This document shows positions 1,292 to 14,115 of a DNA stretch of 18,907 nucleotides, piece by piece (position 1 is the stretch's first letter; every line of letters starts with the position of its first letter). Source of the DNA: Promethearchaeia archaeon (GTDB lineage: Archaea > Asgardarchaeota > Lokiarchaeia > Sigyniarchaeales > SOKP01); the NCBI GenBank assembly GCA_029856125.1, contig JAHQWJ010000125.1, positions 1 to 18,907 of the forward strand, given 5' to 3'. Under the pieces are notes generated by a model that saw nothing but the letters and a program-made list of their open reading frames with translations, had not been told where the DNA came from and did not search any database. The position numbers and the translations under genes were made by a program.

Positions 1292-1350
1292 TATTCATAC
1301 TTTTACCTATTTAATTACCATAAATTTGATTATTAATAAAAATTATATTA

Positions 1351-1421
1351 CACTCCCTCTCCTTCGCAAGGTAAGTCATCTTATAACTATTATTTTTTTA
1401 TAAGACTCATCCTAGGGAGTG
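1351..1421 (-). promoter_or_regulatory. Eukaryote-like (Lokiarchaeal-type) SECIS element
   Basis: The minus strand reads CACUCCCU-AGG-AUGAG-UCUUAUAA-AAAAAUAAUAG-UUAUAAGA-UGAC-UUACCUUGCGAAGGAG-AGGGAGUG. This gives an 8-bp lower helix, an AUGA/GA core, an 8-bp upper helix and an A-rich apical loop. It lies directly 3' of genes with Cys-aligned UGAs. Confidence 0.85.
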
Positions 1422-1866: not shown

Positions 1867-3807
1867 TTAACCTCCTTCTAACATTCCGTCAATTTCAGTG
1901 AATAATTGATAATCTCTAAAGTATCTAATGTCTATCGCGTTAGTTGGACAACATGTAGCGCAAATTCCGCATCCATCGCAGTTTATTTCGTCAACAATTG
2001 CCTTTTCTTCGTCAACAACAGTTATTGCATTTTTCGGGCATGCTTTTTCGCATCTCTTACAAGCAATACATAAGTCATTAGAAACTTCTGCAATTATTAG
2101 TTCGATGTCTACTTCTCCTGGAGCGGTTAATTCAGCCACCTTACTCGCTGCAGCTCTAGCTTGAGAAACTGAATACGCGATATCTTTTGGACCTTGGGCA
2201 AACCCTGCAATGAAAACGCCTTTTGTCTTAGTTTCCTGTGGCATTAACCCAAAGTGAGATTCAGTTAAAAATCCATTTATATCGGCATCTAAGTTTAATA
2301 CTCTTGAAATCTGCTCTGTTCCCTTTGAAGGTAACGCAGCAGTAGATAAGATTACTAGATCTGCGCTAATTTTAATGATCTCGTCGGTTAATGACGAATA
2401 CACTCGAATGTTTACATTCTTTGTCTCGGGGTCTTCAGAGAATTCTCCTACTTTTCCCCGAATCATTCTTATATCTGACTGTTTAGCTCTCTGATAATAT
2501 TCTTCGAAGCCCTTTTCGTTAGTCCTCATGTCAATATAACAGATGGTAATATTAGCGTTAGGGAATTCTTCTTTAAGCAATTTTCCGTTTTTTAGTGCTA
2601 ACATGCAACAAACGCCGCTACAATAAGGTCTTTCCGTATCCCGGCTTCCTACGCATTGAATAAACACAATTTCCTCGGGTTCCTTTGAATCCGAGATTCT
2701 GTGAACGTGTCCTTCTAATGGTCCATTTGGAGCAAGAATTCTTTCAAGTTGGGGTTGAGTAATGACATTTTCAAAATTTCCGTATCCATACTCTCCGTAC
2801 GGTTCGTAAATATCCCACCCCGTTGCTACTATAATCGATCCTACCTTGAAAGTAACTTCTTCAGGCACTTGACTAAAGTCTATAGCCTCTAATTCACAGG
2901 CTTCAACACAACTAAAGCATTCTACGCACACATCTCTGTGAATGTCATATAAGAATGGTACGGCTTGTCCAAATGCAATATCAATAGCTCTTCGAGGTCC
3001 TAGGTGTTCGTCAAAGAAATTTGAAGTAATGATAGGACAGACTTCCGTACAAGCCCCGCATCCATTACAGTCATTGTTTACGTACCGTGGTTTCTTTTCC
3101 ACGATAATATTATAATTTCCAACATAGCCTTCAACTCTTTTCACTTCACTATAGCTGAGAATCTCTATATTTTCATGCCGATTGACTTCGAGCATAACAG
3201 GGCCACAGATTCATATCGAACAGTCGTCAGTAGGGAATGTTCTATCTAGTTCTGCCATCCTTCCGCCTATCGTAGTTTTGCTTTCAACAAGAAACACTTT
3301 TATTCCTTCGTTTGCTAGATCTAAAGCAGCGTTCATTCCGGCTATACCCCCACCTACGATGAGAGTCGCTTTTTCAACGGGAACCGTTCTCACGGGAACC
3401 GGTGCCAAGGTCTTTGCTCGGTTAACTCCACTGTTAACTAAGATTTTTGCTTTTTTCAATGCTTCTTCATTATCTTCAGTACACCAAGAACAATGTTCTC
3501 TCACATTGACCATTTGAAAATGGTAAGGGTTTAAATCCGTTTTAGCGAGAGAGCCTCTATAAATTGGTTCGTGAGTTCGAGGAGTTCAAGCGGAAGCAAC
3601 AACACAATCAAGATTTTTCTCATTTATATCATCTATGATTTCTTGTTGCCCACTTTCAGTTCAAAGGAACGCATGAGTTTTCGATATTATGACATCATCT
3701 AAGTCTTTAGCAAATTCAACTAGTTTATCGCAATCTACCTTTCTTTTTATGTTAATTCCTCACTGGCAAGCATAGTATCCAATCCGATGATTTTCAGATT
3801 TTTCCAT
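1867..3807 (-). CDS. hdrA: Heterodisulfide reductase subunit A, multi-selenocysteine form, 646 aa, Sec16/49/74/199
   Basis: Track ORFs 3211-3513 and 1867-3195 share one frame with ATG 3807, interrupted only by TGA at 3760-3762, 3661-3663, 3586-3588 and 3211-3213. It reads RIGYYACQ(U)GINI...AFL(U)TESGQ...VVASA(U)TPRTHE...NVREHCSW...IVGGGIAG...TFPTDDCSI(U)ICGP. It then has four CxxCxxCxxxC motifs, QCVGSR and YCSGVCC. Confidence 0.95.
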
Positions 3808-8005: not shown

Positions 8006-9502
8006 ATGACGGAAAATCCAACTGAACAGGAGTCAGAATCTACTCAATACGATTATTCTTTTGATTATATTCAAAAGAAACTTGAGGGGAAAAAAGACTC
8101 CTATGGAATGTTAATGAAAGAAATTGTGCGGGCAGGTATCTGTACTGAGTGTGGAACATGTGCTGCTGTTTGTCCAGTACTCGAATGGGACCATTTAACG
8201 GGACAACCTAAATTAATAGGAAAATGCACTGGCTGTGGAATATGTTACAATCAATGCCCAAGGACAATAACCGATCCTATTCAACTAATGGGCGAATTCA
8301 AAACGGGATATGTATCAAATACTAATATCCCAGAAGTAATTGGAGCCCAAGATGGAGGAACTGTGACTTCCTTGTTATGTTATTTATTCGATGAACATTT
8401 AATTGATGCCGCTGTCGTTTCAATGAAAGATCCTAATAATCCCTGGCACCCCGTCGCTCAAATCATAACAAATAAAGACGATGCTATTAAAGCTGCTGGT
8501 TCGATTTATTGTCACTCTCAAACCGTTGAAGCATTAATGGACGCAATACGAGAAGGTTATCGTTCAATCGCTTTTGTTGGTACGCCGTGCAATATCGATG
8601 CTGTTGATAAGATGACAAGTTCCCCTGCGGGTATGTTAAAATATTTTATGCGAGCTCACGTTCTTAAAATAGGTCTGTTCTGTATGGACTCTTTTTCTCC
8701 GGAAGCTATTTACCCATTTTTTGAACAAGATGGGATAGATCTGACAAAGGTAGTAAAGATGGACATAAACAAGGGTAAATTCCACATATATTACGACCAC
8801 GATGGAGAACCCATAAAGTCATATACCATTAAACAATTAGATAAATTTAAATCTTCGAGTTGTAATTTCTGTACAGATTTAACTGCTGAAAATGCAGATA
8901 TTTCCGTTGGTTCTGTTGGTAGTGGTCCAAAGAAGAATACAGCTTTTGCGAGAACAGGTATCGGGGCTGAAATTATTGAAGATGCAGCAAGTAAGGGATA
9001 TATTAAAATTGAATCTTACAATGCTATCAACTTAAACGCTGTTTTATTTTTAGCAAAACTTAAGAAAGTTTCGCAATACAACATTCAAAAGCGTAAAGTT
9101 TTCATCGTCAAAGACTCTAAAACACAATCGGAGCCAAAAGTTGAAACAAAACCTGAAGCAGAACAAGCGGTAAAACCATTAGGTTCCAGGAAATTCTTAA
9201 GCGTTAAAAAAAGTATTAACGAGGAAGATGTTGTTCTAAATATTTCGTTGACCAATTCTGTAGGTTATCTCTTGGAAGACTTAAAGATTAGAATTGTTAT
9301 AGTCGAAGAGCTTTTTGAAAAAAAACCTTGGATAACTACAATCAGAGAATTATTTCCTTATGAAACAATAGAAATTGGTTATCCATTAGAAACCGTTAAT
9401 AACGACATAGTCTACTCTAATGTGCTAGTAGAAGCCTCCACGGAAAAATTTGGAAAGGTTTTCTCAAAAACATATAAATTAGCCCCACAAGAAGAAAAAT
9501 GA
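8006..9502 (+). CDS. Second FrhB/FdhB-family protein with ferredoxin domain and extra C-terminal beta-rich domain
   Basis: CTECGTCAAVCP, CTGCGICYNQCP, AQDGGTVT, FVGTPC, IGLFCMD and CNFCTDLTAENADISVGSVGS, then a charged linker and a ~100-aa extension. Confidence 0.9.
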   Translation: MTENPTEQESESTQYDYSFDYIQKKLEGKKDSYGMLMKEIVRAGICTECGTCAAVCPVLEWDHLTGQPKLIGKCTGCGICYNQCPRTITDPIQLMGEFKTGYVSNTNIPEVIGAQDGGTVTSLLCYLFDEHLIDAAVVSMKDPNNPWHPVAQIITNKDDAIKAAGSIYCHSQTVEALMDAIREGYRSIAFVGTPCNIDAVDKMTSSPAGMLKYFMRAHVLKIGLFCMDSFSPEAIYPFFEQDGIDLTKVVKMDINKGKFHIYYDHDGEPIKSYTIKQLDKFKSSSCNFCTDLTAENADISVGSVGSGPKKNTAFARTGIGAEIIEDAASKGYIKIESYNAINLNAVLFLAKLKKVSQYNIQKRKVFIVKDSKTQSEPKVETKPEAEQAVKPLGSRKFLSVKKSINEEDVVLNISLTNSVGYLLEDLKIRIVIVEELFEKKPWITTIRELFPYETIEIGYPLETVNNDIVYSNVLVEASTEKFGKVFSKTYKLAPQEEK

Positions 9503-11364: not shown

Positions 11365-11585
11365 TAATTCATAAGAATTGAACTCAATTGCATGCTCAAT
11401 TTCAGATTGATTAGGATTTTTAAGAATGCTTATTATTATCTCACGTCTAGAATATTAATATCAATATGTTATCTTTCTTAATCATAACTAGGTATTTAAA
11501 TTTACATCATTTCGAACAAGAAATTGTCCTATAACCAAAAAATAGAGATGAATTAGACTAGCATAAATTGTTGAAGTAATTCACT

Positions 11586-11732: not shown

Positions 11733-12107
11733 ATGCTTAAAGATATGAGTAGAGCTGCCTTATCCGTGTTTATCTTTGGTATATACATGATTTTATTGGG
11801 ATTAACATTTTTACTTTTTCCTGAACTCATGATTAGCCTAACTTCACCAAATCCTCCTGACATCGCTTCACGTATTTTAGGAATGATCTTCTTATTTATG
11901 GCTTATTTATTTATTCGCGTAGCTTTAGACGAAGAAGGAATGAAAAAGTTTTTTATGTGGACAGTACACATACGAGTTACAGTAATAATCTTCCAAATAA
12001 TATTTGTCCTACTAGCGTTAGGGAACCCTTTTATAATTATATTTGGTGTTATTGATTTTGCTTTCGCAGCTTGGACATTTTGGGAACTGCGAAAGGAGAA
12101 AAACTAA
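11733..12107 (+). CDS. Small 4-TM membrane protein of unknown function
   Basis: Four hydrophobic segments. The track's GTG (11721) lies within the SD AAGGTGA, so ATG 11733 is the likelier start. Confidence 0.75.
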   Translation: MLKDMSRAALSVFIFGIYMILLGLTFLLFPELMISLTSPNPPDIASRILGMIFLFMAYLFIRVALDEEGMKKFFMWTVHIRVTVIIFQIIFVLLALGNPFIIIFGVIDFAFAAWTFWELRKEKN

Positions 12108-13482: not shown

Positions 13483-14115
13483 CTAAGCGTAAAAAATCCT
13501 ATATAATTCATTGTAAATCTCCGCAAGTTTGGAGATTCTATTCGGATCGTTTTCTTGTAATGAATGAAGGAGATAAGAGTTTAATCCTTGAGAATTTTTA
13601 ATCCACTCTAAAAAACCTTCCACTTCCGCCTTAAGATATGGATCAACTGAGGGTTGCGCTAATCTACTGCTTATATCAGTCAAACCATTGTCATCGGAAG
13701 CATCTACTTCTGTTTCAATAAATTGTGCTTTTGATCCTTTTTTCATCATTGCTGCTGCCCTCGCTATAGCAGGGTACGCCATATGCATCCAACCTTTCGC
13801 TTTTGGTTTGATATGAGCTATAAGATACGTATCAGTTCCAGGTATGGATGAACCAACTAAGTGTCCTTTTTTCTGTCTGTTAGTCGCTACAAATCTTTCT
13901 GGTGCCATTTGAAGAACTGAATATCTAATATTATTCATATTCACAAACTGAGCGTTACCGCCACCCCAAATAGCTAAAAATCCTTTTATATCTTTCGATA
14001 CCTTCCAATTACCAGTTGAGTGAAGAACTTTGGCATTATTATTAACCACAACTACTTTTGTTGCGTCTGAATAATGTTTTTGTAAGTTTTTTACAATAGA
14101 TTTATAGTTTACCAT
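13483..14115 (-). CDS. Asgard profilin-like protein with ~80-aa C-terminal extension
   Basis: STGNWKVSKD, NIRYSVLQMAPERFVATNRQKKGHLV and YLIAHIKP follow the recalled Loki profilin pattern (TENW.., GIKY....EERxIxTNxxGKGH, xxYxxP). ATG 14115 is preferred over GTG 14121 on SD spacing. Confidence 0.7.
   Translation of the reverse strand: MVNYKSIVKNLQKHYSDATKVVVVNNNAKVLHSTGNWKVSKDIKGFLAIWGGGNAQFVNMNNIRYSVLQMAPERFVATNRQKKGHLVGSSIPGTDTYLIAHIKPKAKGWMHMAYPAIARAAAMMKKGSKAQFIETEVDASDDNGLTDISSRLAQPSVDPYLKAEVEGFLEWIKNSQGLNSYLLHSLQENDPNRISKLAEIYNELYRIFYA

Follow-up and report, generated by a model that had tools for sequence, protein, structure and literature searches.

The segment that closes vhuD in a Loki-type (Promethearchaeota) archaeon is very probably the SECIS element of a bicistronic hdrA–vhuD message, folded as a three-way junction. 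It occupies positions 1351–1421 on the minus strand of the window (the whole stretch of contig JAHQWJ010000125.1 that was analysed, 18,907 nt in length), and every part described for it can be located in the sequence. This reading is based on the anatomy of the element, on covariation, on its association with UGA-containing genes and on its absence at Cys-type loci. The element itself is an orthologous instance of an already published signal, the lokiSECIS, and the core finding is known; it is the side arm of this one further instance that could matter. Judged from aligned sequences, the side hairpin (H3) is a constant, covarying arm of the lokiSECIS that recurs with every selenoprotein gene examined, with at least four families of the phylum represented.

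Gene context and anatomy of the element

The element stands at the end of a pair of genes with in-frame UGA codons. The product of hdrA is by Pfam an HdrA-like flavo-iron-sulfur protein; 5 nt separate the gene from vhuD downstream, with which it is presumably co-transcribed, and it lacks a SECIS of its own. The translation of vhuD contains in-frame TGA at codons 15 and 66 and ends at TAG. The six UGA codons of the pair (four in hdrA and two in vhuD) are situated 256 to 2352 nt upstream of the AUGA of the element. On the other side, a frhB-like gene, the product of which contains FrhB_FdhB domains, starts at position 1291, approximately 60 nt downstream of the element. The features are as follows.

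1867–3807, minus strand: hdrA, 646 aa; TGA at codons 16, 49, 74 and 199; stop TAA
1412–1861, minus strand: vhuD/mvhD, 149 aa; Pfam FlpD, 141 bits; Sec codons at 1819–1817 and 1666–1664
1351–1421, minus strand: whole SECIS, a probable three-way junction, located by sequence and by a covariance-model match at 1344–1424
1414–1421, minus strand: 5' strand of H1, CACUCCCU, formed by the final codons of vhuD plus the stop-codon U; pairs with 1351–1358
1412–1414, minus strand: vhuD stop codon UAG, with U in H1 and A and G in a short stem (the C-stem)
1412–1413, minus strand: 5' side of the C-stem, A1413 and G1412, with U1374 and C1375 as the partners suggested by covariation
1407–1411, minus strand: bulged strand of the predicted kink-turn, with G1411-A1410-U1409 as the 3-nt bulge and G1408 and A1407 in the sheared pairs
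1407–1410, minus strand: AUGA, read from the sequence
1398–1406, minus strand: 5' strand of H2, GUCUUAUAA, nine pairs with 1378–1386
1387–1397, minus strand: apical loop of 11 nt, AAAAAUAAUAG, read from the sequence
1378–1386, minus strand: 3' strand of H2, UUAUAAGAU, supported by sequence and covariation
1374–1377, minus strand: G1377 and A1376 (non-bulged strand of the kink-turn), C1375 and U1374 (3' side of the C-stem)
1361–1371, minus strand: side hairpin H3, CCUU (1371–1368) with AAGG (1364–1361) and the loop GCG (1367–1365)
1351–1358, minus strand: 3' strand of H1, AGGGAGUG, a perfect 8-bp complement of 1421–1414
1338–1342, minus strand: run of five U, 9 nt past H1; a possible archaeal termination signal

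An earlier note on this DNA, made from the sequence alone, had recognised an AUGA...GA core, a perfect 8-bp upper stem, an A-rich 11-nt loop, an 8-bp lower helix formed by the last vhuD codons and the stop codon, and the string CCUU-GCG-AAGG on the 3' side of the internal loop, and all of these are borne out. AUGA lies at 1410–1407 and GA at 1377–1376 of the minus strand, the loop at 1397–1387 and the side hairpin at 1371–1361, while the lower helix is the perfect pairing of 1421–1414 with 1358–1351. The upper stem, H2, comprises the eight Watson-Crick pairs plus one G.U pair that adjoins the core, 9 bp in total. The core is predicted to adopt a kink-turn geometry, in which G1408.A1376 and A1407.G1377 would form the sheared pairs, H2 the non-canonical arm and the C-stem the canonical helix. 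In sequence, the pattern of a standard kink-turn fits: a bulge of 3 nt, tandem G.A/A.G, and a canonical helix whose first pair, -1b/-1n, is Watson-Crick. U-rich tails after H1 are likewise found in many orthologues.

The element tracks Sec-encoding vhuD genes

A protein-anchored search of Promethearchaeota (Lokiarchaeota) genomes recovered 33 complete two-Sec vhuD loci, and in every one of them (33/33) the element directly follows the gene. At 14 mvhD loci that are of the Cys type or otherwise divergent, the sequence after the gene contains no match to the core, and none of them scores above 17 bits with the covariance model. The element therefore tracks the Sec-encoding genes. The earlier note had counted two things against a SECIS, a lack of structural conservation in orthologues and the same hairpin downstream of Cys-only versions of the genes; the orthologues have the element throughout, and the Cys-type mvhD loci are without it.

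The vhuD stop codon of the window is a UAG that ends one base before AUGA, an arrangement seen among the 33 orthologues in the window and one relative only, whereas in 31 of the 33 the stop codon is the UGA within AUGA itself. The U of the UAG forms the top pair of H1, and U1374 and C1375 are the C-stem partners of the A and the G, so that the junction takes in all three bases of the stop. The overlap proposed in the earlier note is thus real, and it is even more extreme in the 31 orthologues. It is an already published feature: partial overlap of the lokiSECIS with the coding sequence has been noted, and the proximity of the SECIS argued to prevent recoding of terminal UGA codons, in the text of Mariotti 2016 (PMC4989117), and that of Huang 2024 (PMC11227280) describes UGA stops as often overlapping AUGA.

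A constant and covarying side hairpin

H3 is present in all 13 lokiSECIS elements of this genome, in 33/33 vhuD orthologues and in 90 distinct elements from 32 genomes, and its layout recurs within the family in 25 of 25 genomes sampled, and beyond it in genomes from three further families of the phylum. In each of the 13 elements of the genome GA or AA is followed by 1–4 linker bases, a hairpin of 3–7 bp, a further 0–3 bases and the 3' strand of the lower helix. Sequence is not shared between these stems, as CCUU/AAGG, UAUGG/CCAUA, ACCAUU/AAUGGU, CUC/GAG, CCCC/GGGG and AAAGGGA/UUCCUUU show; the number of distinct stems is 42. The loop contains G (90/90) and C (85/90, with U in four), followed by a purine (88/90), and this conservation equals that of AUGA, which is invariant in 89–90 of the 90 elements. 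The A of GA occurs in 90/90 and the C that follows it in 85/90; in the apical loop the central A positions are kept in 88–90 of 90 and the final G in 87/87. A GNRA reading of the H3 loop (GCGA, GCAA) is at best tentative, given how much its length and register vary.

In the 90-element alignment, which was fitted to a model containing H3 and whose members were partly chosen by that model, 92% of cells are paired, as opposed to 36–56% when the 3' partners are slid by 1–3 columns, and each of the 20 modelled pairs has sequences in which both of its sides are changed. All five modelled pairs of H1 covary (91.5% of cells paired, in a model-guided alignment, since MAFFT aligns H1 of the orthologues wrongly when their linkers are unequal in length), as do all nine pairs of H2 (94.3%), and the third pair of H3 is UA in 30, CG in 22 and UG in 19 elements. 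The -1b/-1n pair, formed by the G two bases before AUGA and the C after GA, is GC in 85, UA in 3 and AU in 2 elements and is unpaired in 0/90, while the -2 pair of the C-stem is mostly AU. Unconstrained RNAalifold on the same 90 elements predicts H1, H2 and H3.

A control free of the model anchors the elements by the core pattern alone and assigns a position-constrained joint score to H3 and H1. A joint H3 and H1 solution exists in 83/83 core-pattern elements with no model fitting; 75 of the 83 exceed the 95th percentile of shuffled flanks, and 72 do so with GC in the H3 loop as well. Of 3000 random sites in this genome only 0.5% satisfy the combined requirement for H3, H1 and GC, and none of three decoy cores, which lack an upstream selenoprotein ORF, does so. 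A first shuffle test, which accepted any hairpin in the tail together with any pairing between head and tail, was discarded as non-discriminating, 25–50% of shuffles having passed it.

If only the vhuD orthologues are considered, H3 keeps its sequence and covaries little, and the evidence for a helix therefore comes from the paralogous elements. The covariation check across orthologous loci that the earlier note had suggested was accordingly answered in part, with H3 conserved in 33/33 and covarying little there. In orthologues of the ACCCC type a best-hairpin search sometimes paired the 5' strand of H3 with the 3' strand of H1, a pairing that is treated as a weaker competing fold. The extra mini-hairpin, which the earlier note took for a possible lineage-specific feature, is real, but it is special neither to vhuD nor to this organism.

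Folding and alternative readings

The element has a folding z-score of -4.0, and 0/200 shuffles fold as well. The plain RNAfold minimum free energy (MFE) structure has another local pairing at -20.9 kcal/mol, compared with -18.6 kcal/mol for the three-way fold and -16.7 kcal/mol for the same fold without H3. In the MFE structure and in the centroid the AGG before AUGA pairs with CCU, leaving GCGAAGG unpaired, and H3 is absent from the MFE structure. Of the computational checks proposed in the earlier note, RNAfold was divided in its answer, since the sequence folds better than 200 of 200 shuffles while its MFE lacks the hairpin, and a Loki SECIS covariance model was clear: against a model built from orthologues, with which real elements score 33–93 bits, the element scores 80–81 bits (E about 1e-18 to 1e-20) and is the only significant match in the window.

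The RNAfold result is what a plain two-helix SECIS of the eukaryotic style would look like, one in which CCUU...AAGG is part of an internal loop, or AGG–CCU extends the lower helix, and the mini-hairpin is unreal. Both the MFE structure and the centroid contain the AGG–CCU pairing, with -20.9 kcal/mol for the MFE against -18.6 kcal/mol for the three-way fold. Nearest-neighbour energies give no credit for kink-turn contacts, and the three-way fold is preferred because the comparative data decide. The paralogues have different H3 stems at the same position, and their bases before AUGA are unable to pair with H3; the G that precedes AUGA by two bases has the C after GA, not H3, as its covarying partner; and RNAalifold predicts H3. 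We consider the two-helix fold improbable. Even slimmer are the chances that a box C/D-type small RNA, or another kink-turn RNA that binds L7Ae, happens to lie after vhuD. The sequence GGAUGA does resemble a C box, and weak Rfam matches to box C/D snoRNAs cover exactly 1351–1421, the best with 23.5 bits (E 0.26), but all of them fall far below the gathering scores of 36–45 bits (45 for the best match), there is neither a CUGA D box nor a guide region, and the element is absent after Cys-type mvhD. Moreover, the genome holds 13 copies, 12 of them directly after a UGA-containing ORF and one after an ORF that ends in UGA-UAG. The sub-threshold matches reflect the kink-turn-like GGAUGA...UGA pattern.

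Hardly more credible is a structure that serves mainly to stabilise or terminate the 3' end of the operon, or to regulate the downstream frhB-like gene. The U5 run 9 nt past H1 and the start of the next gene about 60 nt downstream would suit it, but the invariant AUGA/GA, the fixed geometry of 9 bp and 11 nt, and the link to UGA-containing genes whose downstream neighbours are unrelated are left unexplained. A secondary role in termination is compatible with the SECIS explanation, and the SECIS folded as a three-way junction is the reading followed below.

Two other sub-threshold Rfam box C/D matches in the window, both on the minus strand, are probably due to chance: sR20 (18.5 bits) at 13727–13753, which contains AAUGAUGA, and snoZ161_228 (20.9 bits) at 9337–9426.

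Comparison with known SECIS elements and kink-turn junctions

Eukaryotic SECIS elements (form 1; RF00031) lie in the 3'-UTR, act at a distance and combine an AUGA...GA kink-turn core with unpaired A residues in the apical loop, and the archaeal element has all of these properties. In contrast to the eukaryotic form, its helix II is shorter (9 bp), a canonical G-C pair lies directly below the 3-nt bulge, a third helix sits on the 3' strand, and the organism has no SBP2, only two short ORFs of the L7Ae family.

The closest known system, with no essential difference, is the lokiSECIS, the text description of which comprises AUGA, a 9-bp stem, an 11-nt loop of the AAAAA...AG type and then GA, with a position at the end of the coding sequence and one element after vhuD that is common to the hdrA–vhuD pair (Mariotti 2016; PMC4989117). 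According to the rules given there, the first five loop bases are A-rich, the last is G and usually preceded by A, and GA or AA follows the stem. The core, the stem and loop, the loop bases, the GA and the location in the window all agree with that description, which supports the assignment in the earlier note of a Lokiarchaeota-type, eukaryote-like kink-turn SECIS, here 3' of a two-Sec vhuD. In the results, discussion and methods text of the same paper, the side hairpin and the G...C pair that flanks the core are undescribed.

The Asgard type I eSECIS-like element, as worded in the text of Huang, Xiao and Zhang 2024 (PMC11227280), shares the GA_[G/A]A core, an upper stem of 7–15 bp, an apical loop of 8–20 nt without a ministem and the common use by hdrA and frhD/vhuD. 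In that description, however, both the internal loop and the lower stem are without highly conserved nucleotides, whereas the element studied here has in this region a hairpin that covaries and whose G-C-purine loop is nearly invariant. An Rfam scan of the whole window and of a local segment of 161 nt (1300–1460) returned no SECIS family at E <= 10; Rfam has no family for this element, and standard SECIS tools are reported to miss such elements in the texts of both PMC4989117 and PMC11227280.

The vhuD SECIS of Methanococcales and Methanopyrus (GAA_A) resembles the element in its location 3' of vhuD and in having AUGA opposite GAC/AAC, with a conserved C after GA. The element of the window differs by lacking both the GAA_A bulge and a succession of G-C pairs in its upper stem: by the criteria for the methanogen type taken from PMC11227280 and PMC11881835, inspection of 1351–1421 found no GAA/A bulge with G-C clamps, and H2 contains a single G-C pair.

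The nearest described motif is the k-junction of the Lilley laboratory (PMC4005666, PMC10573300), a likeness drawn at the level of secondary structure predicted from sequence. In the k-junction an extra helix on the non-bulged strand of a kink-turn makes a three-way junction, and the Loki element would do likewise. The third helix of the k-junction joins at the turn via 1–2 connecting bases, whereas that of the Loki element would leave after a canonical stem of 1–4 bp and 1–3 linker bases.

Further lokiSECIS elements and the selenocysteine machinery of the genome

With a core-only pattern (AUGA, nine pairs, a loop of 10–12 nt, GA or AA) 11 good elements were found in the same genome, and the covariance model added two more to give the total of 13. 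Twelve of these lie just 3' of an ORF with an in-frame TGA, the upstream genes being vhuD paralogues, a stand-alone hdrA, a vhuU-like gene, two Prx-like genes, a SelD-like gene and several small ORFs with TGA. The thirteenth, on contig C148 (minus strand, about 27155–27260), follows by some 45 nt a zinc-ribbon-like ORF of 36 codons (CxxC...CxxC) that ends in ...RFK-TGA-TAG, with no larger UGA-containing ORF upstream; this ORF may code for a very small protein having Sec at its C terminus; alternatively, the TGA may be no more than the stop codon.

Several of the other loci deserve mention in their own right. On contig C122 (minus strand, near 12086) an ORF of 95 aa with two adjacent TGA codons (...HAD-U-U-ADN...) directly precedes a lokiSECIS and does not obviously belong to any published Asgard selenoprotein family. 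Hydrophobic ORFs of 59 and 67 aa on contigs C8 (minus strand, near 48132) and C50 (plus strand, near 19097), each with an in-frame TGA and followed by a lokiSECIS, are candidate small membrane selenoproteins. A hdrA of 676 aa with two TGA codons on contig C129 (minus strand, near 11562) ends 20 nt before a lokiSECIS of its own with no vhuD in between, where the text of Mariotti 2016 (PMC4989117) has Loki hdrA always followed by vhuD. On contig C32 (minus strand, 36946–37033) a SECIS with an apical ministem (type II-like) follows an ORF of 309 codons with one TGA, which is probably selD; this SECIS also has a side hairpin, CUCU-GCG-AGAG, and a lower helix.

A gene for SepSecS is present in the genome (352 bits). 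A search of the draft genome for tRNA-Sec with aragorn and Rfam RF01852 gave none above the cut-off, and the best matches, about 30 bits on contigs C84 and C71, look like long-arm tRNAs. Because SepSecS and 13 SECIS elements are present, the tRNA-Sec gene may be unassembled or atypical. A search of the genome for an L7Ae/SBP2-like paralogue yielded only two short ORFs of the L7Ae family, which agrees with the reported absence of SBP2. The sole functional test in the literature, of a Loki SECIS in M. maripaludis, found it inactive (Peiter and Rother 2025; PMC11881835).

Proposed mechanism and implications

In the proposed fold the 8-bp H1 would stack on the 2-bp canonical stem, to be followed by the kink-turn and then by H2 with its 11-nt A-rich loop, and H3 would branch off the non-bulged 3' strand at a distance of two bases past the canonical stem. 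By analogy with archaeal and eukaryotic 3'-UTR SECIS elements, the folded RNA would recruit the Sec-specific elongation factor and Sec-tRNA, directly or via an adaptor, to ribosomes paused at the six upstream UGA codons, four in hdrA and two in vhuD. The text of PMC4989117 has a single lokiSECIS serving as many as six UGA codons across some 2 kb.

Since the final codons of vhuD and its stop codon go to make up H1 and the canonical stem, each terminating ribosome would have to unwind the element, which, judging from this geometry, would refold afterwards. Unwinding may keep the terminal codon from being recoded, and such protection would matter in 31 of the 33 orthologues because their stop codon is the UGA of AUGA. 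H3 probably buttresses the very short canonical stem, and it may offer a sequence-specific contact, to which either a protein could bind or the A-rich loop, folded back by the kink, could dock. One may speculate that the fixed lengths of H2 and its loop, the invariant A residues of the loop and the H3 loop fit one tertiary arrangement, in which the apical loop comes near the junction.

A more tentative proposal, to which we attach somewhat less than even weight, is that all Loki-type SECIS elements are three-way junctions and that the G-C-purine loop of the third arm is a required recognition determinant, overlooked in the text of the published models. The determinant could in that case serve the SECIS reader (SelB or an adaptor) or the docking of the A-rich loop. 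The arm is absent from the eukaryotic consensus. It is unmentioned in the texts of PMC11227280, a 2026 review (PMC13188914), Sun 2021 and Peiter and Rother 2025, and a full-text search of the literature produced nothing relevant that links SECIS with a three-way junction; it thus appears to be undescribed in published text, while the hairpin may be visible in drawn structures.

The arm bears on the question of how archaea read a SECIS in the 3'-UTR, given that no SBP2 is present, that SelB is a candidate binder and that a Loki SECIS is inactive in Methanococcus. A conserved, covarying arm with a loop as invariant as the AUGA/GA core would provide both a target for mutation and a bait for a binding partner. 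It refines the view of the Loki element as simply a short eukaryotic SECIS: the Asgard form would carry a module that eukaryotes have lost or never had.
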